The notes beneath the pieces are model-generated. The model had not been told where the DNA came from, ran no database searches, and saw nothing but the letters and a program-made list of their open reading frames with translations. From a virus, in IMG/VR virus record IMGVR_UViG_3300027759_000056, positions 47,977 through 111,976 of that record: a DNA stretch of 64,000 bases, one strand, 5' to 3'. Position numbers and translations under genes: made by a program. Positions 3,998 through 17,224 of this stretch are shown here, one piece after another; the first letter of the stretch is position 1, and every line of letters begins with the position of its first letter.

Positions 3998-4234
3998 ATG
4001 ATTACAATGGAAGACTTAAAAGATTTTGACTTCACAAATGATAGTAAGGTTGAATTTATGACCAAACCAGGTTTTGTAGAAAAACGTATTCAACAAATGA
4101 TTCAAATTGGTGCGAATGAAGAGTATGAAAAATACAGTGAAGGAATGAGTGATGATGACATTGCAAAATGGAAAGAAGGGTTTGTAGTCGGAGCAAACTG
4201 GTTATTAAAAAATAAAAACGAAAAAAATATTTGA
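3998..4234 (+). CDS. hypothetical protein
   Basis: ATG 3998 directly after the previous stop. Confidence 0.6.
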   Translation: MITMEDLKDFDFTNDSKVEFMTKPGFVEKRIQQMIQIGANEEYEKYSEGMSDDDIAKWKEGFVVGANWLLKNKNEKNI

Positions 4235-4260
4235 CATATCAATAAACTTTTGTATCTTTG
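4230..4260 (+). promoter_or_regulatory. Bacteroidota-type housekeeping promoter (-33 TTTG / -7 TATCTTTG) for tRNA array 1
   Basis: TTTGACA...TATCTTTG (4253-4260). Confidence 0.75.
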
Positions 4261-4283
4261 TACCATATTTAATACTAAACACA

Positions 4284-4379
4284 ATGAAACTCGTAAATAA
4301 ACAAATCGTGAAACATGTCATTCAATTCTGTTCGAATTGGTATCTTCGCGTATTCGTAAGTTCGGGTGTTTTAAGTTAA
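4284..4379 (+). CDS. putative attenuator leader peptide 1 (MKLVNKQIVKHVIQFCSNWYLRVFVSSGVLS)
   Basis: 31-codon ORF between promoter and terminator; codons 10-22 are the 13 amino acids of the downstream tRNAs. Confidence 0.8.
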   Translation: MKLVNKQIVKHVIQFCSNWYLRVFVSSGVLS

Positions 4380-4400
4380 CACATAGTAGCCTTAAAAAGG

Positions 4401-4431
4401 AAACCCGAACTCACAAGGTTCGGGTTTTTTT
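4401..4431 (+). terminator. intrinsic terminator/attenuator upstream of tRNA array 1
   Basis: AAACCCGAAC-TCACAAG-GTTCGGGTTT plus T tract; 5' arm can alternatively pair with AGTTCGGGT (4359-4367). Confidence 0.85.
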
Positions 4432-4437
4432 GTTTTT

Positions 4438-4459
4438 AAGTTCTTTGACATGTTGGTAA
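4438..4459 (+). promoter_or_regulatory. boxA-like antitermination element
   Basis: AAGTTCTTTGACATGTTGGTAA; 20/22 identical to 11690-11711. Confidence 0.6.
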
Positions 4460-4467
4460 TCAAAAAT

Positions 4468-4540
4468 GGGACGGTAGCAAAGATGGTCAATGCGCTGGAC
4501 TGAAAATCCAGTCATGGTGGTTCGAGTCCACCCCGTCCCA
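4468..4540 (+). tRNA. tRNA-Phe(GAA)
   Basis: CTGGA-CTGAAAA-TCCAG. Confidence 0.93.
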
Positions 4541-4548
4541 CAATACAT

Positions 4549-4625
4549 TGGTGATTAGCTCAGTTGGTTAGAGCACTACGCTGATACCGTAGGGGTCACA
4601 GGTTCAAATCCTGTATCACCAACCA
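4549..4625 (+). tRNA. tRNA-Ile(GAT)
   Basis: CTACG-CTGATAC-CGTAG; encoded CCA. Confidence 0.93.
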
Positions 4626-4630
4626 TAAAT

Positions 4631-4701
4631 TACCCTTTCGTCTAACGGCAGGACGAGTGGTTTTGGTCCACTTAGTGGAGGTTCGAATCCTTCAGGGGTA
4701 A
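4631..4701 (+). tRNA. tRNA-Gln(TTG)
   Basis: AGTGG-TTTTGGT-CCACT. Confidence 0.92.
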
Positions 4702-4707
4702 CAATAT

Positions 4708-4781
4708 GACTTCGTAGCTCAATTGGCTAGAGCACCGTGCTTTTAACACGGGGGTTTCGGGTTCAAGTCCCGATGGGGTCA
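4708..4781 (+). tRNA. tRNA-Lys(TTT)
   Basis: CCGTG-CTTTTAA-CACGG. Confidence 0.93.
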
Positions 4782-4787
4782 CAATAT

Positions 4788-4860
4788 CTTTCCTTAGCTC
4801 AGTTGGAAGAGCACTTGGCTTACATCCAAGATGTCGTTGGTTCAAATCCAACAGGAAAGA
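4788..4860 (+). tRNA. tRNA-Val(TAC)
   Basis: CTTGG-CTTACAT-CCAAG. Confidence 0.92.
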
Positions 4861-4867
4861 CAAAAAT

Positions 4868-4949
4868 GCCAGTATCGCATAGCGGCAATTGCGGCGGATT
4901 GTAAACCCGCTCTCATTTGAGTTCGTAGGTTCGAGTCCTACTGCTGGCA
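4868..4949 (+). tRNA. tRNA-Tyr(GTA)
   Basis: loop TTGTAAA; long variable arm. Confidence 0.9.
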
Positions 4950-5011
4950 CAAAACTTATAATCCTCCAAAACTCACTTTTTTTACTAGTTTTGGAGAGTT
5001 ATAGAATATAA

Positions 5012-5085
5012 GTCCATATGCCTGAGAGGTTCAAAGGGACAGTCTGCAAAACTGTTATTCGTTGGTTCGATTCCAACTATGGACT
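5012..5085 (+). tRNA. tRNA-Cys(GCA)
   Basis: ACAGT-CTGCAAA-ACTGT; U73. Confidence 0.9.
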
Positions 5086-5087
5086 CT

Positions 5088-5162
5088 GTGACTGTAGTTC
5101 AGTGGTAGAGCATCGGCTTGTGGTGCCGAGTGTCGTGGGTTCGAATCCCATCAGTCACCCCA
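5088..5162 (+). tRNA. tRNA-His(GTG)
   Basis: TCGGC-TTGTGGT-GCCGA; C73 plus CCA. Confidence 0.93.
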
Positions 5163-5167
5163 AATAC

Positions 5168-5250
5168 GGAAGTGGTCCGAATGGACGAGGACACCGCCTT
5201 GAAAGCGGCTGGCTGTAAAAGGCTTGGGGGTTCGATTCCCTTCTCTTCCG
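5168..5250 (+). tRNA. tRNA-Ser(TGA)
   Basis: CCGC-CTTGAAA-GCGG; long variable arm; G73. Confidence 0.9.
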
Positions 5251-5258
5251 CAAAAAAT

Positions 5259-5333
5259 GGTTCCTTAGTTTAATTGGATAAAACATCTCGCTACGGACGA
5301 GAAGATGTGGGGGTTCGAATCCCTCAGGAATCA
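5259..5333 (+). tRNA. tRNA-Arg(ACG)
   Basis: TCTCG-CTACGGA-CGAGA. Confidence 0.92.
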
Positions 5334-5340
5334 CAACTAC

Positions 5341-5411
5341 GTAAGTGTGGTGTAATGGTAGCATAAAGGTCTCCAAAACTTTTGGCGAGGGTTCGAGTCC
5401 TTCCACTTGCG
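5341..5411 (+). tRNA. tRNA-Trp(CCA)
   Basis: AAGGT-CTCCAAA-ACTTT. Confidence 0.9.
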
Positions 5412-5417
5412 CAAAAT

Positions 5418-5499
5418 ACCAAAGTGGCGTAACGGTAGCCGCATTAGTCTTAGAAACTAATGTCCTAAGGGCGTGTGGGTTCGACTCCCACCTTTGGTA
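5418..5499 (+). tRNA. tRNA-Leu(TAG)
   Basis: TTAGT-CTTAGAA-ACTAA; long variable arm. Confidence 0.92.
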
Positions 5500-5510
5500 C
5501 AAAAATAAAT

Positions 5511-5592
5511 TGGCAGGTAGCCTAGAGGTCAGGCAGCAGACTGTTAATCTGCGACGGAAACGTCTACGTGGGTTCGATTCCCACCCTGTCAG
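5511..5592 (+). tRNA. tRNA-Asn(GTT) with atypical long variable arm
   Basis: GCAGA-CTGTTAA-TCTGC; variable arm GACG-GAAA-CGTC; G73. Confidence 0.88.
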
Positions 5593-5637
5593 CAAAATAT
5601 TTTTTGTAAAGTCAAATATCTGTTGTATATTTGTTGT

Positions 5638-6114
5638 ATGGAAAAGGGGTTTATATCATCTTCAAAAGCAATCAAAGGATATACTGAATCAAAAATTGCC
5701 AAATCTGAAAACAACGATTGTGTTGTTAGAGCAATTGCATCAGCTGCGGATATGGATTATGATTCCGCCCACCAATTCGTTAAAGAAACATTCAATAGAA
5801 AAAATGGTAAAGGTACTTTTGGACTTGGTACTGGTATGAATTTGTTGTCAAAGAATGGTAAACAAATTAACGGTAAAAACATTCAAATTATTTCTGAAGA
5901 ACACAACACCATGTTGTATTATGTGGTAGTTAAAGGTGTAAAAAAATTAAGAGCAACAACAACCGCATCATTCATCAAAAAACACCCTGTTGGTTCTTAT
6001 GTGGTTGTTGTTAAAGGTCATGCGTTTACCATCAAAGATGGTGTTGTTATTGGTAACCCTGATGATGGTAAAAAAATGAAAAAACACATTACAGGGGCTT
6101 GGAAAATTGGATAA
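5638..6114 (+). CDS. hypothetical protein with NDCVVRAI...GHA motif (possible papain-like Cys/His fold)
   Basis: sequence motif; TATATTTG 4 nt upstream. Confidence 0.6.
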   Translation: MEKGFISSSKAIKGYTESKIAKSENNDCVVRAIASAADMDYDSAHQFVKETFNRKNGKGTFGLGTGMNLLSKNGKQINGKNIQIISEEHNTMLYYVVVKGVKKLRATTTASFIKKHPVGSYVVVVKGHAFTIKDGVVIGNPDDGKKMKKHITGAWKIG

Positions 6115-6141
6115 TATGTTTTAACTTTGTATAACAATAAT

Positions 6142-6215
6142 GGTGTGGTAGCTCAGCAGGTAGAGCAGTAGATTGAAACCCTACGTGCCACGTGGTTCGA
6201 TTCCCGTTCACACCA
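6142..6215 (+). tRNA. tRNA-Phe(GAA), second copy
   Basis: GTAG(A)-TTGAAAC-(C)CTAC; imperfect T stem; TAACTTTG promoter 6122-6129. Confidence 0.8.
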
Positions 6216-6221
6216 CAAAAT

Positions 6222-6353
6222 AATTAGATGGGCGTAATGAGGGATGGTACCCGAGTCCCCAAGATTGGAGGTCACCAGTAATAGGTGGCCGTTGCGTCGT
6301 AAGGTTGTCTAATCCGTCCTGAACGGTATTCGGTTCGAGTCCGACTCTAATTA
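6222..6353 (+). ncRNA. tRNA-like RNA (acceptor stem + T-arm) with expanded central domain
   Basis: AATTAGA/TCTAATT acceptor; TCGG-TTCGAGT-CCGA T-arm; internal hairpins. Confidence 0.6.
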
Positions 6354-6431
6354 TGAAAAACTAACCCAGTTTCACAATGAGGGCTGATACCTTCGGAGTG
6401 GGGGTGACGGTCAGGAAAGACTGACAACCAT

Positions 6432-6589
6432 AGTCAGGTGGCGGAATTGGTAGACGATAATGGAGTTATACTATCAAACACAGAGGGTGCGGCGTAGATG
6501 GGAACTACTACATTATCTCTTGGACGCAAGAGAGCAATATAACCCTAACCATTTGGTATAACGTGTAGGTTCGAATCCTACCCTGACTA
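6432..6589 (+). ncRNA. tRNA-Leu-like RNA with ~100-nt insert replacing the anticodon/variable arms
   Basis: AGTCAGG/CCTGACT acceptor; GCGGAATTGGTAGACG D-arm; GTAGG-TTCGAAT-CCTAC T-arm; A73. Confidence 0.7.
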
Positions 6590-6695
6590 CAAAAACATAA
6601 ACTCAAGTACCCACACAGTGGTGAGACGGGCTAAGTAAGATACAATTCCTCGGAACTGGGAGTAGAGAGCTTGAGAGTGTTTTTTAATTAAAAAT

Positions 6696-7379
6696 ATGAA
6701 AAATTTAGTAAAAGCAATTATTTTGGTCATTGTTATAGGAATTTTAGGTTTCATAACAAGTTGGAAAGTTTGGGGTAACAATAAACCAATTGAAGATACC
6801 GTTAAAATTGATACGGTAAAAATTAAACCACAAGACACAATTGTGGATGTTAAAGGAAAATACGTTCTTTTTATTGGTGATTCACATACATCAAATCCTA
6901 ATGGATGGCAAACAATCTTATCCAACAAAACAAAGATGAGAATGAATAACATTTCTGTTGGTGGAAAAACTACAGGTTGGATGTTAGAAAGGGCAAAAGA
7001 ATCAATTCACGAGAATTTAGATTATTGTTTTATCTATGGTGGTGCCAATGATATGTTTAACAGTAAAATTACTATTGAAAGTGCCATAAAGAACATTCAA
7101 AGAATTGTTAATATTTGTAATTCCAAAGGTGTTAAACCAGTTGTGATTACGGGATTTGACCCCCTTACTTGTATTAACACACCAGAAAATCCAAACTATA
7201 AATTTAAGTATTCCAAATTTCAGAATGAATTGATTAAAAAAATTGTTGGTGGAAAGGTGATTAATACTCGTGTGATTACAAAATCGGATTGTTGGGATGG
7301 ACTTTGTCATATGGCACCATCAGGACATAAAAAAATTGGAAATTGTGTTATCAAAGAAATGAAGTTTAAGACATATTAA
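6696..7379 (+). CDS. SGNH/GDSL hydrolase with N-terminal membrane anchor
   Basis: FIGDSHT, GGAND, DGLCHMAPSGH blocks. Confidence 0.85.
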   Translation: MKNLVKAIILVIVIGILGFITSWKVWGNNKPIEDTVKIDTVKIKPQDTIVDVKGKYVLFIGDSHTSNPNGWQTILSNKTKMRMNNISVGGKTTGWMLERAKESIHENLDYCFIYGGANDMFNSKITIESAIKNIQRIVNICNSKGVKPVVITGFDPLTCINTPENPNYKFKYSKFQNELIKKIVGGKVINTRVITKSDCWDGLCHMAPSGHKKIGNCVIKEMKFKTY

Positions 7380-7400
7380 CACATCAGTATATTTATTGAT

Positions 7401-7838
7401 ATGGAAATTACAAAAAGAGACCTTTTAAATGGTTTATCATCAAAATCAAATCCAGCAACTGAAACTGCAGATGTGGTTGATATGATTGCAACATTACTTC
7501 ATTCAAGAAATCAGGCTCATGTTTTTCATTGGCAAACAAAATCACAATCATCATTTGCTGAACATATGGCCTTAGGTACGTATTACGATGAGATTGTTGA
7601 ATTAATTGATAATATTGTTGAAAGTTATCAAGGAAAATACGAAATAATTACTGGTTATAAAACAATTAAAACAGTTGATTATAAATCAACAGAACAAGTA
7701 ATATCTTATTTTAAAGAATTAGATGAAAATATTGAAAAAAATAGAACATCGGTTAAAGAATCCTATATTCAAAATCAAATTGATGGAGTTCAAGAATTGA
7801 TTTACTCAACATTATACAAATTAAGATTCTTAAAATAA
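7401..7838 (+). CDS. ferritin/Dps-like protein (DUF5856 type)
   Basis: QAHVFHWQT...AEHMALGTYYD...ESYQG...TLYKLRFLK. Confidence 0.75.
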   Translation: MEITKRDLLNGLSSKSNPATETADVVDMIATLLHSRNQAHVFHWQTKSQSSFAEHMALGTYYDEIVELIDNIVESYQGKYEIITGYKTIKTVDYKSTEQVISYFKELDENIEKNRTSVKESYIQNQIDGVQELIYSTLYKLRFLK

Positions 7839-7873
7839 TTGACGAATCACGGTTTTAAACATATATTTGCCTC

Positions 7874-8485
7874 ATGGCTAAATACACACTTAATACCTAT
7901 GGATGGTCTTTTGAGGCTATCTGCAAATCTCTAACTGACGAACAAGTCCAAATTATTAAAGACAAAATGGAAGAAGAAGGTTTTTCGGAACTCCATGAAA
8001 TCCGTTTTGATTTGGATGAACTATTGGACCTTGATTTTTGGGACGGTGAAATATTTCACAAAACCGAAGCGTTTGACAATGGTACAATGCACTTTGAACT
8101 TCTTGATGAAGAAGAAAATAAAGTATTAGAGTTTGGTATTGGTGAAACCGCCGACTTATACGAAACAATTGAAGATTTTGAAGAAAAGTATGAGTATAGA
8201 GGTTATAGTCCGATTCCTGAAGAAAAAGGACCAACCAATTTGTATTTAAGCATAGATGAAAACAAAGGTGGGATTTTTACATTCAAACTTGAATCTGATA
8301 CCATACCGACACCATCGGATTTTACTTACTCAACAGGTTCAATAGACACAACTGATGGTGATTATGATTTTATTGACAAAATTTTCTTTAAAGGACAACC
8401 ATTAGAAATTGAAGATTGTTTGGATAATTCAGGGAAATCATCCTCATGTATGATTTATACATTGGATGGTGAAACCATAGAATAA
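7874..8485 (+). CDS. hypothetical acidic protein
   Basis: 203-aa ORF; TATATTTG 4 nt upstream. Confidence 0.7.
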   Translation: MAKYTLNTYGWSFEAICKSLTDEQVQIIKDKMEEEGFSELHEIRFDLDELLDLDFWDGEIFHKTEAFDNGTMHFELLDEEENKVLEFGIGETADLYETIEDFEEKYEYRGYSPIPEEKGPTNLYLSIDENKGGIFTFKLESDTIPTPSDFTYSTGSIDTTDGDYDFIDKIFFKGQPLEIEDCLDNSGKSSSCMIYTLDGETIE

Positions 8486-8489
8486 TTAT

Positions 8490-8563
8490 GGCGAGGTAGC
8501 TCAGTCGGTTAGAGCGCAGGATTCATAACCCTGAGGTGGGGGGTTCAATTCCCTCCCTCGCTA
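8490..8563 (+). tRNA. tRNA-Met(CAT), elongator-like
   Basis: CAGG(A)-TTCATAA-(C)CCTG; GGCGAGG acceptor. Confidence 0.9.
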
Positions 8564-8592
8564 CAAATACATAATTGTGAGTATTTATATAT

Positions 8593-10146
8593 ATGATTTT
8601 ATTTGAAGGTCGTAAGGAAGACTCATTTAAGAAATTCCAAAAAAGTATTGATGGTGAAAGAAAGATGATATCCACTTACATGGATGATGCGTCTGCGTAT
8701 GATTTTTTAATTGGTGAACCTTTTATAAAAGAGACTAATTACAAATATCTTAATGATATTTTGGATTATTATTATACCGTAAATTATTATTCAGGTGAAG
8801 CTGAGCCTTTAGACAAAGACAAAGCAAGAAATCTAATATTTGGAATGAGGAGTGAAATTGACAAGATTGTTGCTTCTTTAGAAACATTTGAAAAACACAA
8901 ATCCAAATTCAAATATCCTGAGTTTAGAAAATACAATACAAATATAGAAGATTTTTTTAAGGAAGCTCAAAAGATTAAAACTGACGTTGAGACCAAACAG
9001 ATTGAAAAATCCGCCAAGAAAGAAATAGATAAAATTTTTGAAAACGATACGTTGTTGGTTATAAAACCAAAATCATTTACAGCATCTTGTTATTATGGTT
9101 CAGGTACAAAATGGTGTACAACAATGAAAGGTAATCCATCGTACTTTAATCAATATAGCTCAAGTGGAAACTTGTATTATTTAATATTAAAAAATGTTGA
9201 TAGAAGTAACAAGTTTTACAAAATGGCTATTCACGCACCAAAGAATAAAAGATTTGATGAAGCTTCAATTTGGTACGATTCAACTGACGAAAGATTAACA
9301 TCAAGAGAAAAAGAATCTGTATTAGCTCATATGCCAAAAGACGCTTATAATGCAATGGTTAATGACTATAAAACTTCATTCCCTGAAGAGAATCCAATAG
9401 ATATTATTTACAAGATAATGCCAAATGTGAACCAAAATGTGGATGATTATGTATATAAATTCAAAGGTGGTGAAATAGAATTGGCAATTGATTCACCTGA
9501 GATTGAAGATACTGACACAAATAGTCTTAGAATTAGTTCTACTTGGGGTATATCGGAACAAAGAAATGGTAAAGAGGTTTATCATGAAGATGGTGCCATT
9601 GATTGTTATTTGGAATCTTATCCAAATCAAGTGTTATTACCAAACTATTACATAGTTAAAATAAGTTATGAGATAATACCATATTCAGATACTAAAATTG
9701 TTGAAAGATATGATGGTACTACAACATTACAACTTGACAACGAAAGAAAAAACGACCCAGAATATGTTAGAATACAACTTAACGGTGCATTAAAACAAAT
9801 ATTTGACGGTTTCCAAAATAAAATGGAGTATAGACTTAGAAATGATGAGGATTTATTAGAGAAATATCCACCAACAAAGTCTAAAGCTTATACCATGTCA
9901 AAATACACCTTCACAGGTAAAGGAGCGTTAACCAAAGCATTTATGGAATATCTTAAAAACATTCCTGAAGGTAAGGTCGGTAATAAGAACGAATTTTTAA
10001 CTCAAATAGGTAGAAGAAGTGGTCCTGGTCAATATAGTAGTTTCTTTTCAGCGTCAAATATGGCAGGTATTAGTGCCAGACAAGGAAAAAGTGGTTTGGT
10101 TAAAGGACCAAACTTTGACAAATTTTACAAGAAAATATTTGAATAA
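8593..10146 (+). CDS. large hypothetical protein (ASCYYGSGTKWC family), probable head-associated; paralog of 18500-20299
   Basis: shared motif; MILFE|GRKED N-terminus; TATTTAT upstream. Confidence 0.7.
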   Translation: MILFEGRKEDSFKKFQKSIDGERKMISTYMDDASAYDFLIGEPFIKETNYKYLNDILDYYYTVNYYSGEAEPLDKDKARNLIFGMRSEIDKIVASLETFEKHKSKFKYPEFRKYNTNIEDFFKEAQKIKTDVETKQIEKSAKKEIDKIFENDTLLVIKPKSFTASCYYGSGTKWCTTMKGNPSYFNQYSSSGNLYYLILKNVDRSNKFYKMAIHAPKNKRFDEASIWYDSTDERLTSREKESVLAHMPKDAYNAMVNDYKTSFPEENPIDIIYKIMPNVNQNVDDYVYKFKGGEIELAIDSPEIEDTDTNSLRISSTWGISEQRNGKEVYHEDGAIDCYLESYPNQVLLPNYYIVKISYEIIPYSDTKIVERYDGTTTLQLDNERKNDPEYVRIQLNGALKQIFDGFQNKMEYRLRNDEDLLEKYPPTKSKAYTMSKYTFTGKGALTKAFMEYLKNIPEGKVGNKNEFLTQIGRRSGPGQYSSFFSASNMAGISARQGKSGLVKGPNFDKFYKKIFE

Positions 10147-10174
10147 TTCTTATTAGTGTCTTATACTTTTGATA

Positions 10175-11443
10175 ATGGAAAAATTATCAAATGTAGGGAA
10201 CAATATTGTGGGCTCTGAAATTATTAAAATCTCACAACAAATCAAAGAAATTGCTAAAACAAAATCAGTATCTAACCTAACCATAGGTGACTTTAATTCC
10301 AAACTATGGCCAATACCCTCAAAATTAAGAGAACACATTCAAGATGCGTATGAGTGGGATTTAACCAACTATCCAAACTCACAAGGAGAACTTGAATTAA
10401 GAGAATCCGTATCCAAACACATTAAACATCAGTTCAATGTTGATTATTCACCTGAAGAAATATTAATTGGTGGTGGAGTTCGTCCATTAATTTATACGGT
10501 TTATAAAGCCACGGTAAATCCAAATGAAGAGGTGATTTATCCTGTACCATCTTGGAATAATAACCACTATTGTTTTTTACATAACGCAAAAAAAGAAGAA
10601 ATTGAATGTACACCTGAAAATTCATTTTTCCCAACCGTTGAAGATGTTGACGGCAGAATAAGTGATAAAACATCATTGGTTTGTATTTGTTCACCGCAAA
10701 ATCCAACAGGTCGTGTAATTGACCCCGAAGTTCTGAAAGGTATTTGTGAGTTGATTGTGAGAGAAAATAAAATCAGGTCAACACAAGTAGGTTCAAGACC
10801 ATTGTATTTGTTCTTTGACCAGATTTATTCTGACATCACCAAAGAAGGTTTGTTTATCCACCCATTAACTTTATGTCCTGAAATCAGAGATTATTTGATT
10901 TGTGCTGATGGTATTTCAAAGTCATTAAACGCAACTGGTGTTCGTGTTGGTTGGTTGTTTGGTCCAAAAGATATTATTGGAAAGATGACCGAAGTTTTGT
11001 CTCACATTGGAGCATGGGCTCCAAAACCTGAACAACGAGCATTGGATGCGTACATCAGAGAAGATTATGAAGATTACATTTCTCACATTAACTATGTAAC
11101 AAAATCGTACGAATTTATATCAGATAAAATATGTGGTAAGTTGGAAGAATTGAAAAACAAAGGTCATAATGTTGATTACCAAAAACCTGATGGTGGAATT
11201 TATATTTCGGTTTATTTGGGTTATGTTCATTCATTTCCAACAACTGAAGAGTATATTTCGTTCTTAATTAATACCTGTGGGTTGGGAATTGTTCCGTTTG
11301 AATATTTTGGTTCAAAGAGTAACAAAGGATGGTTTAGAATATCAATTGGTAATGTTGCCGAGTTAAATTTGGACTCAATTATTAAAACAATTGAAAATTC
11401 TGTACAAAAATCAGTAAGTTATGTAAATTCTTTAGCATTTTAA
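10175..11443 (+). CDS. PLP-dependent aminotransferase class I/II (aspartate aminotransferase-like)
   Basis: SPQNPTG, FDQIY, DGISKSLNATGVRVGW (PLP lysine), WFRIS. Confidence 0.9.
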   Translation: MEKLSNVGNNIVGSEIIKISQQIKEIAKTKSVSNLTIGDFNSKLWPIPSKLREHIQDAYEWDLTNYPNSQGELELRESVSKHIKHQFNVDYSPEEILIGGGVRPLIYTVYKATVNPNEEVIYPVPSWNNNHYCFLHNAKKEEIECTPENSFFPTVEDVDGRISDKTSLVCICSPQNPTGRVIDPEVLKGICELIVRENKIRSTQVGSRPLYLFFDQIYSDITKEGLFIHPLTLCPEIRDYLICADGISKSLNATGVRVGWLFGPKDIIGKMTEVLSHIGAWAPKPEQRALDAYIREDYEDYISHINYVTKSYEFISDKICGKLEELKNKGHNVDYQKPDGGIYISVYLGYVHSFPTTEEYISFLINTCGLGIVPFEYFGSKSNKGWFRISIGNVAELNLDSIIKTIENSVQKSVSYVNSLAF

Positions 11444-11500
11444 TTGACACTTTTCAAAAGTTTGATATATTTAATAAGAAATTAAATAATAATACATTCA

Positions 11501-11569
11501 ATGATTACCATCAACATATTCGGCACACCAGCAACAGAGGCTGATACTTCCAAAGTGGAGATGGGATAA
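11501..11569 (+). CDS. putative attenuator leader peptide 2 (MITINIFGTPATEADTSKVEMG)
   Basis: 22-codon ORF ahead of a terminator; core GTPATEADT matches tRNA array 2. Confidence 0.75.
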   Translation: MITINIFGTPATEADTSKVEMG

Positions 11570-11590
11570 TATTGTAAAAAAATATCTTAC

Positions 11591-11622
11591 AAAAACCCAT
11601 CTCAAAAGGATGGGTTTTTTTT
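11591..11622 (+). terminator. intrinsic terminator/attenuator upstream of tRNA array 2
   Basis: AAAAACCCATC-TCAAAAG-GATGGGTTTTT plus T tract; CCCATCTC can alternatively pair with GAGATGGG (11558-11565). Confidence 0.85.
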
Positions 11623-11653
11623 GTGTTTGTTTGGCAGTATCAAAAAAATGTAT

Positions 11654-11661
11654 TAACTTTG
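11654..11661 (+). promoter_or_regulatory. Bacteroidota-type -7 promoter element
   Basis: TAACTTTG with TTTG ~20 nt upstream. Confidence 0.65.
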
Positions 11662-11689
11662 TAGTGTTGAAAAACACAACAGAACAAAA

Positions 11690-11711
11690 AAGTTCTTTGA
11701 CGTATTGGTAA
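11690..11711 (+). promoter_or_regulatory. boxA-like antitermination element
   Basis: AAGTTCTTTGACGTATTGGTAA. Confidence 0.6.
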
Positions 11712-11720
11712 GAAAAAATT

Positions 11721-11792
11721 GCTCGGTTCATCTATCGGTTAGGATGCTAGGTTTTCATCCTAGAAAGAGGGGTTCGACTCCCCTACCGAGTA
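11721..11792 (+). tRNA. tRNA-Glu(TTC)
   Basis: CTAGG-TTTTCAT-CCTAG. Confidence 0.92.
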
Positions 11793-11801
11793 CAAATAAA
11801 T

Positions 11802-11876
11802 AGCGGGGTGGAGCAGAGGTAGCTTGCGAGGCTCATAACCTTGAGGTCACAGGTTCGAATCCTGTCCCCGCTACCA
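11802..11876 (+). tRNA. tRNA-Met(CAT), initiator-like body with A1-U72 pair
   Basis: AGCGGGGTGGAGCAG...; loop CTCATAA; CCA. Confidence 0.88.
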
Positions 11877-11884
11877 AAATAAAT

Positions 11885-11958
11885 CGCGAGTTGGTGTAAT
11901 GGTAACATAATGGGCTCATAACCCATAGTTCCGAGTTCGAGTCTCGGGTTCGCAACCA
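11885..11958 (+). tRNA. tRNA-fMet(CAT)
   Basis: C1:A72 mismatch; GGG/CCC anticodon stem; CCA. Confidence 0.88.
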
Positions 11959-11961
11959 ATG

Positions 11962-12172
11962 GATGTAACTTGGGTCGTGCCACATTGGCCACTTTTACAT
12001 CAAGAGTCAGAAGGATTAGAGGTGGCCGTGACTACTCTGACTCGAATACAAAGTACCACGATGCTTACCGTAAGAACAGCACAGTGGTAGATAGAGTTAA
12101 CGTGAATAACCCAAGGCATAAGCGTTAACAACCCCCAATAAGACTATTTGGCCAATAGAAACTGTTGGGGTT
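11962..12172 (+). ncRNA. unassigned multi-hairpin, pseudoknotted RNA
   Basis: five hairpins and two loop-loop complementarities (see findings). Confidence 0.6.
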
Positions 12173-12179
12173 ATTAAAA

Positions 12180-12251
12180 GCGAGTGTAGTATAAAGGCTA
12201 TTACTCCAGCCTTCCAAGCTGGATATGCGAGTTCGATTCTCGCCACTCGCT
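12180..12251 (+). tRNA. tRNA-Gly(TCC)
   Basis: CCAGC-CTTCCAA-GCTGG; U73. Confidence 0.92.
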
Positions 12252-12256
12252 CAAAA

Positions 12257-12453
12257 AGAACCTTTTCTTACGGAAGTCCGATTAGCGCGGATGAAAGGAA
12301 CCTTGACTTCACGGGAGTAGCTACCCAATTGAAGCTTGAATGACTCAAGGTACTCTGTAATGGACCCTGCTCTATGGTGCACACATAACAGGTGATGGGG
12401 AACAAACCATCGGTAAAATCTAAACCCACGGTGAGCGTGGAAGGAAAGTTTCT
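12257..12453 (+). ncRNA. unassigned ~200-nt structured RNA
   Basis: closing helix AGAACCTTTTCTT/AAGGAAAGTTTCT; several internal hairpins; no ORF. Confidence 0.55.
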
Positions 12454-12460
12454 TTTTTTT

Positions 12461-12535
12461 GCGGGAGTAGCTCAGGGGTAGAGCTTCAGTTTACCAAACT
12501 GAAAGTCGAAGGTTCGAATCCTTTTTCCCGCTCCA
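12461..12535 (+). tRNA. tRNA-Gly(ACC)
   Basis: TCAGT-TTACCAA-ACTGA; GCGGGAG acceptor; U73 plus CCA. Confidence 0.88.
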
Positions 12536-12603
12536 AATGTAAATCTTAAAAAGGGCCCTTCCGTGTTTATCACGGCTTGTTGGGCCCGGGTTTACTAACT
12601 TAC

Positions 12604-12675
12604 GGTCCTGTAGTTAATCGGCTATAATATTGCCCTGTCACGGCAAAGTGCCGGGTTCGATTCCCGGTGGGACCG
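12604..12675 (+). tRNA. tRNA-Asp(GTC)
   Basis: TTGCC-CTGTCAC-GGCAA; G73. Confidence 0.92.
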
Positions 12676-12686
12676 CAAAAATAAAA

Positions 12687-12756
12687 GGGCCTGATGTCAA
12701 CGGCAGACCGTTTGATTTGCAATCAGAACGTATGGGTTCGATTCCCACAGTGTCCA
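12687..12756 (+). tRNA. tRNA-Ala(TGC)
   Basis: TTGA-TTTGCAA-TCAG; G3.U70; irregular acceptor/D arm. Confidence 0.8.
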
Positions 12757-12765
12757 CAAACAAAT

Positions 12766-12841
12766 AGCGTAGTAGAGGAGTCAGGTTTATCTCATCTGCT
12801 TTGGGAGCAGAGGCACGCTGGTTCGAATCCAGTCTACGCTA
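12766..12841 (+). tRNA. tRNA-Pro(TGG)
   Basis: TCTGC-TTTGGGA-GCAGA. Confidence 0.9.
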
Positions 12842-12874
12842 CTAATTATAAAAAAAATTTACTATCTTTGTAAC

Positions 12875-13162
12875 ATGAAAAACATATTAAAAGACCCCCG
12901 ATTTTATTTTTTCCTATGGATTGTTCTATCTATTATTCTTGCCATTACGTTAGGAGCTTGTAAACAGAAACCTTTGATTGAAAAAGGTGATGTAGTTGAA
13001 AAGTTCGTTATTGATTCAATGGTTCAATTGCCACCTCACAGCACAATTGAACTTGACAGGAAGTACAAGTATTTCATGTCAGACAGCAGTGAGTTTACTT
13101 CTTTGAAGAAATATAACATTGGTGATACAATCACTTATGTTTACAAAAAACAAGGAAAGTAA
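12875..13162 (+). CDS. putative lipoprotein/membrane protein
   Basis: hydrophobic N-terminus ending in LGAC lipobox. Confidence 0.65.
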   Translation: MKNILKDPRFYFFLWIVLSIILAITLGACKQKPLIEKGDVVEKFVIDSMVQLPPHSTIELDRKYKYFMSDSSEFTSLKKYNIGDTITYVYKKQGK

Positions 13163-13181
13163 TATATATTAAAACATAAAT

Positions 13182-13258
13182 GCCTGAATAGCTTTAATTG
13201 GTAGAGCACCTGACTTGTAATCAGGGGGTTGGCGGTTCGAGTCCGTCTTCAGGCTCCA
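13182..13258 (+). tRNA. tRNA-Thr(TGT)
   Basis: CCTGA-CTTGTAA-TCAGG; CCA. Confidence 0.93.
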
Positions 13259-13270
13259 AACACAATAATC

Positions 13271-13456
13271 ATGGACCCCAAGACTCAAATGACGCAGGAA
13301 GATTTTTTAACTGAATTGACTGAATTAAGTCAGTCATTTGGATTGTATGGTGAAAATGACAACTTTGGTGTTGATGGAGTTTACATACATACCCAACCAG
13401 AAATGTACATATGTCCGTGGGATAATACTCAAGGGGATTGTACTCATTTCAACTAA
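13271..13456 (+). CDS. small hypothetical protein
   Basis: MDPKTQMTQEDF..., between two tRNAs. Confidence 0.5.
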   Translation: MDPKTQMTQEDFLTELTELSQSFGLYGENDNFGVDGVYIHTQPEMYICPWDNTQGDCTHFN

Positions 13457-13461
13457 TATTT

Positions 13462-13535
13462 GGACGGGTAGCTCAACAGGTTAGAGCAGGATGCTTATAT
13501 CATCAAGGTTGGGGGTTCAAGTCCCTTCTCGTCTA
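13462..13535 (+). tRNA. tRNA-Ile(TAT)
   Basis: GATG-CTTATAT-CATC; standard D and T arms; A73. Confidence 0.85.
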
Positions 13536-13549
13536 CTAAAAATTTAATT

Positions 13550-14122
13550 ATGAGCAACGAATATAATCAATGGTATTGGAAACTTTATAGATGGTTCAGA
13601 TGGGACGCTAAACATCTTCATCGTGATATTGCACAGGGTTTTAGAAACCTATGGAAATGGTTACCAATAATTTGGAAAGACCGTGATTGGGATGACCATT
13701 TTATTTTTGAAGTTTTGAAATTCAAAATCAAGAATACCGCCAAGTATACAGAAAAAAAACAAAGGTTTGTTGGTTGGGAAAAAGAAGTTAGATATATGAG
13801 AATATGTGAAACTTTAATTGATAGAATTCAAAATGAGTATTATCAGATGGAGTATCAAGATTATCATGATTTTGATATTAGTACGGTACCAACAGAAGAT
13901 GGTTTGTATGAAGTTGTCTTTGATGTTAAACGTGATGATACTGATGAATTTGTTAAAAAATACCCACACGCTCTAAGAAAAGCAAAAAAAGACCCAAGAT
14001 TTAAGAGTTATTTTAAGAATGAAAGAAATGGTTATCTTGCTGTGGGTATGATTAGACACGAAAAAGCAAGAAAACTGTTATTCAAAATTTTGGAACAAAG
14101 AATTGAGCGTTGGTGGGATTGA
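13550..14122 (+). CDS. hypothetical Trp-rich phage protein
   Basis: WLPIIWKDRDWD...IERWWD. Confidence 0.75.
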   Translation: MSNEYNQWYWKLYRWFRWDAKHLHRDIAQGFRNLWKWLPIIWKDRDWDDHFIFEVLKFKIKNTAKYTEKKQRFVGWEKEVRYMRICETLIDRIQNEYYQMEYQDYHDFDISTVPTEDGLYEVVFDVKRDDTDEFVKKYPHALRKAKKDPRFKSYFKNERNGYLAVGMIRHEKARKLLFKILEQRIERWWD

Positions 14123-14150
14123 TTTTTTTCACTATATTTGTATAACAAAT

Positions 14151-14224
14151 GGACCTTTAGCTCAGTTGGTCAGAGCGGCTGACTCATAATCAGTAGGTCG
14201 TAGGTTCAAGCCCTACAGGGTCCA
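14151..14224 (+). tRNA. tRNA(CAT), probably Ile2 (lysidine type)
   Basis: GCTGA-CTCATAA-TCAGT; GGACCTT acceptor resembles Ile2 bodies. Confidence 0.8.
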
Positions 14225-14227
14225 CAA

Positions 14228-14413
14228 ATGAAACAAAAAATGTATAGACCAAAAATTGACCGAGTTATTGGTGGAGTATGTTCTGGTATTGCATACCACG
14301 TAGACATTGACCCAATTTTTGTTCGAGTATTATTCTCAATATTAATTTTTAGTCCACTCCCAATTATCTTTGCTTATTTATTATTTTGGTTTTTTACACC
14401 AGGTGGTGAATAA
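14228..14413 (+). CDS. pspC: PspC-domain membrane protein
   Basis: DRVIGGVCSGIAYHVDIDPIFVRVLF signature. Confidence 0.85.
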   Translation: MKQKMYRPKIDRVIGGVCSGIAYHVDIDPIFVRVLFSILIFSPLPIIFAYLLFWFFTPGGE

Positions 14414-16708: not shown

Positions 16709-16771
16709 AAAAATTTTATAAAAAAATATTAAATTAAAGTGGTCTAAATTGACCACTTTAATTGTTTTTAG

Positions 16772-17152
16772 TGGAGATGGAGGGTATCGAACCCTCGTCC
16801 AGACTACCTCAACCGATAGATACTACACGTTTAGGTCAGTGTTTGCCAACACTCCGAAATTCACAATTCCCTTATTTTATAGTGGTTCGGTTTACTGAGA
16901 ACTAATCCTCCACTTGTTTCTTTTTAGATAGAAACCACACCTCTAAAGACTTCTGTTCTTAGGTTAATGTCTCCCGACCTGTTTTGTAATAGCGATTAGG
17001 CTACTACAGAAGCGTTTTCACGGATTAATCCGATAGTCGCCATTTTGTCTAAAACGTTGCCGTCTAATTTTTCGAACCAGTTTTTAATGAGTTATTTCAG
17101 CTCATACGTGCATCCATCAATCAACAATACCTGTCGATTCCATGTCATCCCC
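16772..17152 (-). ncRNA. ssrA: tmRNA
   Basis: 5' GGGGATGACATGGAATCGAC; 3' GAGGGTTCGATACCCTCCATCTCCA; G3.U70; tag ORF GNVLDKMATIGLIRENASVVA*. Confidence 0.92.
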
Positions 17153-17224
17153 ATAAATCAAAGAACTTTCTACAAATATAAATATACTTTTTTAACAATA
17201 CAACTATTTATAATGAAAATAACT

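Follow-up and report, generated by a model that had tools for sequence, protein, structure and literature searches.

A putative leader-peptide attenuator ahead of a tRNA array in a giant freshwater phage

How can a phage that carries a full set of tRNA genes avoid making tRNAs that are not needed? In bacteria, tRNA genes are generally regarded as promoter-controlled, together with rRNA genes. The question is raised by a locus in a giant freshwater phage (IMG/VR record IMGVR_UViG_3300027759_000056), of which a stretch of 64,000 nt, hereafter the window, was analysed. From 11444 to 11711 come, in this order, a promoter, an ORF of 22 codons, an antiterminator paired with a terminator, another promoter and a boxA; tRNA array 2 comes next. 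An earlier note on this DNA had read the arrangement as a ribosome-dependent attenuator that lists the amino acids of its array. Our analysis supports this view, and we give a probability of about 70% to the reading that a ribosome-mediated (leader-peptide) transcription attenuator gates transcription from the first promoter and from the upstream genes into array 2. Judged from these sequence features, the phage probably makes more array 2 tRNAs when ribosomes read the matching codons slowly.

Elements of the locus

The features are as follows.

11444-11471, plus strand: promoter P1 (TTGACA, 16 nt, TG, TATATT), beginning directly 3′ of the aminotransferase stop codon
11501-11569, plus strand: leader ORF with ATG start, 22 aa; stop codon at 11567-11569
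11522-11548, plus strand: roster core, codons 8-16 (Gly, Thr, Pro, Ala, Thr, Glu, Ala, Asp, Thr), the proposed sensing zone
11558-11565, plus strand: 5′ strand of the antiterminator, GAGATGGG, within the last three sense codons and ending 1 nt ahead of the stop codon
11572-11592, plus strand: A/U-rich hairpin nested within the antiterminator (TTGTAA 11572-11577, TTACAA 11587-11592)
11591-11622, plus strand: intrinsic terminator, stem 11591-11619, T run to 11622
11630-11661, plus strand: promoter P2 of Bacteroidota type (TTTG 11630-11633; TAACTTTG 11654-11661), downstream of the terminator
11692-11711, plus strand: boxA, an rrn-type site for Nus-factor antitermination
11721-12842, plus strand: tRNA array 2, with Glu(UUC), Met, fMet-like, Gly(UCC), Gly(ACC), Asp(GUC), Ala(UGC)-like and Pro(UGG)
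11959-12179 and 12253-12460: structured inserts of about 210 nt in array 2, the second holding a freshwater-1 RNA (12356-12418)
13182-13258, plus strand: outlying Thr(UGU) tRNA
13462-13536, plus strand: outlying Ile(UAU) tRNA
14151-14225, plus strand: outlying CAU tRNA, presumably of the lysidine Ile2 type

P1 is the best sigma-70-type match in 13 kb in a promoter scan, its second element runs on into TATATTTA, which nearly matches the -7 motif of Bacteroidota, and it is conserved in four relatives (L112, L114, L126 and L147). The ORF behind P1, whose codons match the tRNAs to be regulated here and in 24 non-redundant leaders of the family described below, is presumably translated; it is preceded by an A-rich stretch without a Shine-Dalgarno sequence, as is usual for Bacteroidota. 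The residues of its core are limited to G, T, P, A, E and D, and an ATA codon lies ahead of it at 11516-11518. How exceptional is such a core? Runs of nine residues from the set G, T, P, A, E, D and M occur 11 times in 128,000 six-frame residues, and the roster core is the sole one inside a small ORF; all of E, G, D, A, P and T are present in just three of 258 small ORFs (≤25 aa). It counts against the model that five of the 21 post-start residues (N, F, S, K, V), as well as ATT and ATC codons, belong to the set of array 1, the other tRNA array of the window. A minus-strand ORF over the same region (11498-11731, 77 aa) was rejected as a gene, as it overlaps tRNA-Glu and its stop-free length falls to 41-51 codons in two relatives, L126 and L147.

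GAGATGGG is complementary to CCCATCTC (11596-11603) in the terminator 5′ arm, and folding of 11501-11607 pairs the two (-20.6 kcal/mol, z -2.7). In the full-length fold (MFE -29.7 kcal/mol, z -3.05) the terminator is formed, with a 5′ arm including 11596-11603, a loop at about 11603-11607, a 3′ arm at 11608-11614 and then eight T. The antiterminator would thus exclude the terminator, and its upstream strand would lie beneath a ribosome positioned at the stop codon. The nested hairpin, which has comparable counterparts in relatives, may act as a pause or helix-closing element. A trp-style 1:2 pairing is represented only by a weak 5-bp CCAUC:GAUGG helix in the MFE fold, weaker in L112 by eye, and since there is no convincing pause or anti-antiterminator (1:2) hairpin, synchrony between ribosome and polymerase is assumed in the model.

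The boxA is followed by a stable-RNA unit, and its sequence matches those of the host clade: exact matches to its 17-nt core occur in Bacteroidota genomes, and of the 81 genome matches 45-49 lie between tRNA-Ala and 23S rRNA. By this match it is the boxA of the Bacteroidota 16S-23S spacer. Placement ahead of 16S rRNA was considered and rejected, as in bacterial genomes no 16S 5′ end lies downstream of the motif, which precedes 23S. The same family of 20-mers is found 24-31 nt ahead of the first tRNA in dozens of phage arrays.

The tRNA genes were called with ARAGORN and Rfam, which gave Glu, Met, a second Met with the look of an initiator, Gly(UCC), Gly(ACC), Asp, Pro, Thr, Ile(UAU) and the CAU tRNA. 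The Ala tRNA (12687-12756) is marginal (29.5 bits in Rfam for a cut-off of 29, without an ARAGORN call); its UGC anticodon loop is clean, and its acceptor stem and D arm are irregular. The irregular Ala tRNA of this phage lineage counts against the model, as does the position of the outlying tRNAs, Thr and Ile(UAU) 340-620 nt and CAU about 1300 nt beyond the last array tRNA, behind small ORFs and another promoter-like TAnnTTTG site at 12862-12869. The Thr tRNA lies within the array in L114, L126 and L147.

Most of the earlier description of the locus holds against the sequence: the coordinates of the leader ORF and of its core with the preceding Ile codon, the pairing of ORF end and terminator with its nested helix, the terminator itself, the near-identical loops of the two attenuators in the window (TCAAAAG here, TCACAAG in attenuator 1), the boxA-like site, and the caveat that a promoter lies downstream of the terminator, which is moreover conserved in relatives. 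Two points had to be adjusted. The further TAnnTTTG promoter placed at 12863 is present one nucleotide earlier, and in the list of tRNAs only the Ala gene stands as marginal.

The proposed switch

How would these elements control the array? RNA polymerase and a ribosome would move along the leader together, the one transcribing and the other translating it. With fast decoding, the ribosome would reach the stop codon and cover GAGATGGG, so that the terminator could form and transcription would end ahead of the array. If a charged tRNA is scarce, the ribosome would stall at a roster codon that needs it (the roster spans codons 2-16, for the most part Gly, Thr, Pro, Ala, Glu, Asp and ATA-Ile), and the free GAGATGGG would pair with the terminator 5′ arm, which would let the polymerase proceed across boxA. 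Binding of NusB/NusE to an rrn boxA confers resistance to termination; if Nus factors bind the phage site likewise, the polymerase would probably be made termination-resistant as on rRNA operons and continue through the tRNA genes. The antiterminator would also be expected when no ribosome is present, e.g., when initiator tRNA is short. The net effect would be a negative feedback on the supply of the array-encoded tRNAs.

P2, lying downstream of the terminator, bypasses the attenuator and would provide an unattenuated baseline. Thus, with a conserved P2 between terminator and boxA, control at array 2 can at most be partial, and the attenuator can modulate only part of the array transcription. 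Four lake metatranscriptome runs were compared with positions 4000-14400 as assembled contigs, which cannot show RNA starts, ends or levels. One contig of 100% identity covers 11542-11793, i.e., the leader tail, terminator, P2 and boxA up to the end of tRNA-Glu, and another (4285-4470) crosses attenuator 1; both are compatible with read-through RNA, and also with DNA carry-over. A high library depth over 11634-11980, which probably includes tRNAs of other organisms, was left out of the analysis.

Relatives, the cassette family and other readings

Relatives of the cassette were drawn from IMG/VR; blastn against GenBank phages gave tRNA-sized matches only and no relative of the locus. In L114 and L147 a core Ala is replaced by Gly, a substitution which stays inside the amino-acid set of the array. 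In L126, whose aminotransferase is 67% identical, the core is reordered and has no Pro codon, and a Pro tRNA was not found in the 2.6 kb after the array. Its terminator stem is CCCACC/GGTGGG and its ORF-tail strand GGGTGGG, a compensatory pair of changes. The cassette is present in all eight loci where an array follows the aminotransferase and absent where protein genes come next, a distribution by which it travels with the tRNA array and not with the upstream gene.

A wider family is found ahead of tRNA arrays in IMG/VR phages: 37 cassettes with 31 distinct leaders, 24 of them non-redundant. Wherever a terminator lies no more than about 100 nt upstream of a boxA-headed array, it is preceded by an ATG ORF of 22-39 codons that ends 16-38 nt ahead of it; this ORF is open in all 31 distinct cassettes and keeps its position relative to the terminator, and an intrinsic terminator lies between leader and array in all cassettes. 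Many divergent phages keep the ORF, the terminator and, upstream, a copy of the terminator 3′ arm in front of their tRNA arrays. In nascent-transcript folds the 5′ arm pairs upstream in 22 of 24 cases, mostly with the ORF tail, and in most leaders the antiterminator strand ends 0-20 nt ahead of the stop codon. The duplex of the ORF tail is stronger with its own terminator arm (mean -10.5 kcal/mol) than with arms of other classes (-6.9; p=4e-9, with about eight unrelated stem sequences), although this p-value and those given below, as family statistics from related sequences, overstate independence.

Does the leader follow the array? The share of array amino acids found in the own leader is 0.98, vs 0.78 for permuted pairs (0 of 20,000 permutations), and when arrays are extended across gaps one amino acid is missing in 20 leaders. 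A mid-zone codon is found for 174 of 188 amino acids in the array vs 42 of 192 absent from it (odds ratio 44). The codon boxes of Leu, Ser and Arg go with the anticodons of the array as well: the leader has a codon for 22 of 22 boxes with an array tRNA, and for seven of 18 sibling boxes without one (p=1.4e-5). The codon match is highest in the mid zone, at 84%, with 55% at codons 2-6 and 59% where the tail encodes the antiterminator (p=1.6e-12). This fits the attenuation model, in which a ribosome stalled in the mid zone would leave the antiterminator free. The comparative alignment proposed in the earlier note thus bears out its reading: the design is kept while the sequence drifts, leader composition and codon boxes change with the array, and stems covary, as in L126. 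Its claim of complementary sets is borne out as well, array 1 having 13 amino acids and array 2 the other seven, with Ile in both.

In the his and phe leaders regulatory codons come in runs. Here each roster tRNA gets one or two scattered leader codons and no run, so sensitivity to the shortage of a single tRNA may be low. It might be that the switch senses how translation fares in general, the antiterminator being freed whenever ribosomes slow down or are missing, through ribosome shortage, inhibitors or host shut-off, and that the roster is secondary. Single scattered codons would be poor sensors of one tRNA, the ribosome-free default is predicted to be read-through, and a tRNA operon of Anabaena is induced by general translational stress (PMC8421152). 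We consider this unlikely, as it leaves unexplained why leader codons, down to the Leu, Ser and Arg boxes, track each array and why two leaders of one genome hold complementary sets.

Still less probable is that the hairpin is a constitutive terminator or insulator of the aminotransferase operon, that the small ORF is non-regulatory and that P2 alone drives the array. The terminator is strong, P2 is a consensus Bacteroidota promoter, conserved and downstream of it, and a TAnnTTTG motif occurs in the spacer of most cassettes with spacers of at least 58 nt. However, the terminator is separated from the aminotransferase stop codon by P1, no cassette follows the aminotransferase where the array is absent, and the ORF, the roster and the covarying strand are kept in unrelated contexts, including cassettes without P2 and with only 1-18 nt from terminator to boxA. 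The least probable of all is a product with a function in trans, be it the peptide of 22 aa or the leader RNA left by termination (about 150 nt), in which case the correspondence with the array would be incidental or secondary: the N-terminal part of the leader is often conserved and attenuator-derived peptides and small RNAs acting in trans have precedent, e.g., peTrpL and rnTrpL of Sinorhizobium (PMC7968998, PMC6614838), but between classes the peptide sequence varies and only its composition follows the array, and a role in trans would supplement attenuation, not substitute for it.

Known systems and what the attenuator would mean

Leader peptides of enterobacteria are the closest counterparts to the proposed attenuator; thr reads Thr and Ile, ilvGMEDA reads Ile, Leu and Val, and others are known for trp, his, phe and leu. 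On the proposed model both have a short translated ORF with regulatory codons and an intrinsic terminator ahead of the regulated genes, an exclusive antiterminator whose 5′ strand is masked by the finishing ribosome, and leaders that can read several amino acids. Unlike those, the phage element, found in phages of a Bacteroidota host clade, would regulate tRNA genes and not biosynthetic enzymes, its leaders name up to 13 amino acids, most of them a single time, where the enterobacterial ones have runs for one to three, and it lacks a clear 1:2 pause hairpin and has a boxA after the terminator. It is not a member of the Rfam leader families, with 26.1 bits for Thr_leader (RF00506; gathering 55), 18.1 for Trp_leader (41) and 19-30 for Phe_leader (55). 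The T-box, in which tRNA status also decides between terminator and antiterminator upstream of translation-related genes, binds one uncharged tRNA directly via a specifier codon and requires no ribosome, whereas the phage element is a presumably translated ORF; Rfam gave no T-box match in the window at gathering scores, nor in 11400-12470 at E up to 1. As in rRNA operons, a boxA (here the Bacteroidota spacer variant) heads an untranslated stable-RNA operon, but the phage boxA comes directly after a terminator that would be regulated, and only read-through or P2 transcripts would gain it.

The trn operon of Anabaena PCC 7120 is a long, stress-induced tRNA array repressed by TrcR (PMC8421152, PMC10272220). 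It would resemble array 2 as a supernumerary, horizontally mobile array that is kept low and turned on when translation is impaired, but there a ribbon-helix-helix repressor acts on direct repeats of the promoter, and leader peptides, terminator switches and codon rosters go unmentioned in both papers. Phages with large tRNA repertoires are described as using them for counter-defence or codon compensation, by which host tRNAs lost to anticodon nucleases or shut-off can be replaced (PMC10264068, PMC11555353, PMC11464382). Those studies concern the roles of the tRNAs, while the phage cassette is a proposed demand-sensing control of their synthesis; PMC10264068 mentions no leader, attenuator, terminator or promoter. 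No published account of leader-peptide attenuation of tRNA genes was found.

What would follow if the attenuator works as proposed? These would be the first tRNA genes under leader-peptide attenuation, and the leader a natural multi-codon sensor of translation speed. A cis sensor that reads how specific codons are decoded and acts back on the matching tRNA genes would bring a new logic to tRNA homeostasis; it would account for the way in which phages with full tRNA sets avoid needless synthesis, and it could answer host immunity that targets tRNAs. A broader idea, which we hold only tentatively and at somewhat less than an even chance, is that giant Bacteroidota phages run closed-loop homeostats, one per array, each block turned on when ribosomes stall on its own codons, with the 20 amino acids split, in this genome, over two independently sensed arrays. 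Such a phage would detect the loss of particular host tRNAs, through anticodon nucleases, shut-off or codon mismatch, and replace exactly those. The leaders are candidates for compact natural sensors of up to 13 codon types, and their natural variants are a ready mutational series. The leader ORFs of 22-39 codons escape gene callers, yet they predict the content of the next array.

Layout and folding of the proposed attenuator 2

The source record comprises 111,976 bases, and its completeness of 37% (CheckV) implies a phage genome of roughly 300 kb. The window carries 26 tRNA genes (ARAGORN), a tmRNA gene and a freshwater-1 RNA. Every feature that the earlier note had assigned to 11444-14224 was recovered at its position, a tRNA-Ala call alone being marginal. 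The elements of attenuator 2, which would gate tRNA array 2, and its counterpart ahead of array 1 are as follows (window positions, + strand).

Features of the two proposed attenuators and array 2
10169-11443, +: aminotransferase gene, class I/II, directly 5' of promoter P1
11444-11471, +: promoter P1 (TTGACA-16-TG-TATATT), starting right after the aminotransferase stop codon
11501-11569, +: leader ORF of 22 codons with an ATG start
11558-11565, +: antiterminator strand GAGATGGG, complement of CCCATCTC at 11596-11603
11572-11592, +: nested A/U-rich hairpin
11591-11622, +: intrinsic terminator
11654-11661, +: motif TAACTTTG of promoter P2, with TTTG at 11630-11633
11692-11711, +: boxA-like 20-mer
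from 11721, +: array 2 tRNAs Glu, Met, initiator-like Met, Gly(UCC), Gly(ACC), Asp, Pro
further 3', +: outlying tRNAs Thr, Ile(UAU) and a CAU tRNA
4284-4379 and 4397-4431, +: ORF and terminator of attenuator 1

P1 is the top sigma-70-type match within the 13 kb scanned. Attenuators 1 and 2 share their layout, with different stems and near-identical loops, and the two arrays are indeed complementary as had been proposed: array 1 serves 13 amino acids and array 2 the other seven, Ile being common to both. The nine-residue core of the leader (codons 8-16) is drawn solely from array 2 amino acids. The six frames (128,000 residues) contain only 11 core-like runs; apart from the core itself, all ten are low-complexity stretches of long frames. 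Of the 258 small ORFs (25 aa or less), just 3 have every one of E, G, D, A, P and T. The pairing postulated by the earlier note also appears in the computed folds: in the transcript up to the terminator loop, 11558-11565 pairs with 11596-11603 and encloses the nested hairpin (-20.6 kcal/mol, z -2.7), and the full-length transcript forms the terminator (-29.7 kcal/mol, z -3.05). A pause hairpin of the 1:2 type was looked for in the folds of the leader, and none was evident.

Leaders and arrays among relatives

Could the hairpin simply be the terminator of the aminotransferase gene, which it follows? GenBank phages gave tRNA matches only and nothing else of the locus, and in IMG/VR the aminotransferase was found at 41 loci (51-98% identity) and the boxA 20-mer on more than 109 contigs. 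At the eight loci where a tRNA array comes after the aminotransferase, the whole cassette (leader ORF, antiterminator/terminator pair and boxA) is found in all, and it is absent where protein genes come after it. Thus, the hairpin is not simply an aminotransferase terminator.

Sequence drift in the closest diverged relatives leaves the logic of the leader intact. The leaders of loci L114 (7326-7394) and L147 (7325-7393) have one core Ala changed to Gly, which is still within the set of the array. At L126 (leader 7323-7394; aminotransferase 67% identical) the core is reordered to G-T-E-T-G-A-D-T and has no Pro codon, and the array there, Glu, Thr, Met, Gly, Gly, Asp and Ala, has no Pro tRNA in the next 2.6 kb. 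The L126 terminator stem is now CCCACC/GGTGGG and the strand in the ORF tail GGGTGGG, a compensatory change. At L147, an ORF of about 300 codons is inserted between boxA and the first array tRNA (7560-8520), so that the attenuator would also gate a protein gene.

A scan of all fetched loci for the boxA core yielded 79 sites, 37 of which are cassettes, defined by a terminator at most about 100 nt 5' of boxA and an array starting 24-31 nt 3' of it. Among them are 31 distinct leaders (24 when collapsed at 70% identity), and every cassette has an ATG ORF of 22-39 codons, with its end 16-38 nt 5' of the terminator. The fraction of array amino acids found in the own leader is 0.98 vs 0.78 when pairs are permuted (0 of 20000 permutations; these and the other leader-array statistics rest on related sequences, so that the p-values overstate independence). 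Still, relatedness by itself does not explain why a peptide should mirror a tRNA gene set. If arrays are extended over inserted ORFs and RNAs, one amino acid is missing among 20 leaders. The correspondence reaches the level of codon boxes for Leu, Ser and Arg: all 22 boxes with an array tRNA have a leader codon, as do 7 of the 18 sibling boxes without one (p=1.4e-5), and 35 codons fall in the matched box vs 11 in the other. The tRNAs for Pro, Thr, Leu, Lys and Arg(UCU) are located in different arrays in different phages, and the leaders follow.

Fit to an attenuation mechanism and known systems

The terminator stems vary by class, with at least eight unrelated 5'-arm cores, and the ORF tail of each class holds the matching complement. 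The duplex energy averages -10.5 kcal/mol with the own terminator arm vs -6.9 with arms of other classes (Mann-Whitney p=4e-9). In folds of nascent transcripts, the terminator 5' arm pairs upstream in 22 of 24 cases, mostly with the ORF tail, and in most leaders the antiterminator strand ends 0-20 nt 5' of the stop codon. The footprint of a ribosome whose A site holds the stop codon reaches about 15 nt upstream, and therefore such a ribosome would mask the antiterminator strand. One stalled with its A site at least 12 nt 5' of the strand would leave it free. Leaders were divided by this footprint into codons 2-6, a "free" mid zone and the antiterminator-coding tail, and residues match the array at 84% in the mid zone, 55% in codons 2-6 and 59% in the tail (p=1.6e-12). 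Mid-zone codons were positive in 174 of 188 cases if the array had the tRNA and in 42 of 192 if it did not (odds ratio 44). In the window's leader, the non-matching S, K and V correspond precisely to the three codons at which the strand would already lie under a stalled ribosome, and E, M and G are the antiterminator strand itself.

The first reading, an attenuator with a leader matched to its array, is supported across the cassettes by the leader-array match, the codon boxes, the covarying stems and the zone positions. Demand-sensing attenuation of tRNA array 2 is the most likely function, to which we give a probability of 0.7.

The multivalent thr and ilvGMEDA leaders have the same working layout as attenuator 2, which is no member of the curated leader families searched in Rfam (Thr_leader, 26.1 bits vs a gathering threshold of 55), and the Rfam T-box model gave no match. 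In full-text literature searches, no publication describing tRNA genes under leader-peptide attenuation came up. The closest published case, the trn operon of Anabaena, is induced under translational stress, and the repressor TrcR controls it through repeats in the promoter (PMC8421152, PMC10272220), unlike the leader-peptide layout of attenuator 2. A text search of an article on phage tRNAs as counter-defence found no mention of leader, attenuator, terminator or promoter (PMC10264068).

boxA, promoters and neighbouring elements

Exact genome matches to the 17-nt boxA core are mainly in Bacteroidota (Pedobacter, Mucilaginibacter, Chitinophaga, Flavobacteriales, Bacteroidales), and 45-49 of the 81 lie 270-880 nt after the 16S 3' end, past tRNA-Ile and tRNA-Ala and 58-236 nt before 23S. 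By this placement the motif at 11692-11711 is identified as an rrn spacer boxA. Along with promoter motifs of the TAnnTTTG type, this points to a host in the Bacteroidota; it also suggests, by analogy, that array transcripts are made termination-resistant like rRNA transcripts. Over all 112 kb of the record there are only two copies of the full motif, each ahead of one main array. A boxA-like core, GTTCTTTGA (17150-17166, - strand), lies a few bases 5' of the phage tmRNA gene (16769-17152); the phage may put Nus-type sites ahead of several stable RNAs.

It had been cautioned that a promoter downstream of the terminator probably also feeds the array. A consensus promoter of the Bacteroidota is present 3' of the terminator, made up of TAACTTTG at 11654 and TTTG at 11630-11633. 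Therefore, attenuator 2 would govern only the input from P1 and upstream genes, above a P2 baseline. TAnnTTTG is present in most cassettes whose terminator-boxA spacer is at least 58 nt, and those with spacers of 1-18 nt, attenuator 1 among them, are without it. Lake metatranscriptome runs contain parts of the phage as assembled contigs only. An identical contig covers 11542-11793, crossing the terminator, and another covers 4285-4470; such terminator-spanning contigs are compatible with read-through RNA and carry no evidence on regulation.

As for the marginal tRNA-Ala, Rfam scores 12687-12756 (+) at 29.5 bits vs a cut-off of 29, and ARAGORN is silent. In this Ala(UGC)-like tRNA the T arm and the UGC anticodon loop are clean, but the acceptor stem and the D arm are irregular. 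L114 and L126 have a canonical Ala tRNA in the same place of the array, from which the window's copy has diverged, and it may be non-canonical or in decay. The tRNA-Gly at 12461-12535 (+) has the anticodon ACC, where L114, L126 and L147 have GCC. A Gly tRNA with A34 is unusual. Variants of the anticodon loop have been discussed as evasion of anticodon nucleases (PMC10264068), and by analogy tRNA-Gly(ACC) may be of this kind.

The freshwater-1 RNA (12356-12418, +; Rfam 73.8 bits, gathering 72) lies in an insert (12253-12460) between the two tRNA-Gly genes and is presumably co-transcribed and excised with the tRNAs. A 221-nt non-tRNA insert (11959-12179, +), between the initiator-like tRNA and tRNA-Gly(UCC), matches no Rfam family, and one RNA-library contig is a variant of it minus 129 nt (joint 12046 to 12176). 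Small ORFs at 12875-13162, 13229-13456 and 13550-14122 (+) alternate with the outlying tRNAs Thr, Ile(UAU) and CAU. A Pfam scan of the first and third gave no match, and the first has its own promoter motif, TATCTTTG, at 12862-12869. A third set of promoter, short ORF (31-36 codons) and terminator (G000:C1:47527-47637, - strand), about 340-450 nt before the window's start, precedes a 163-aa ORF and tRNA-Leu(UAA), with another stem design and without boxA.

Two short motifs recur around the leaders. CATAT/ACATAT is found at codons 5-8 of most (L012, L022, L050, L051, L091, L097 and others; 11513-11518 in the window), often reading His-Ile or His-Met, although its frame differs in the leader of the window, and it has the look of a signal at the nucleotide level. 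Just 5' of the leader ORFs, 15-30 nt before many of the ATGs (11466-11475 in the window), there is a conserved (C/T)ATATTTAAT element, which is present even if a TAnnTTTG promoter motif stands separately further upstream; it could be the true -7 element or a 5'-leader signal.
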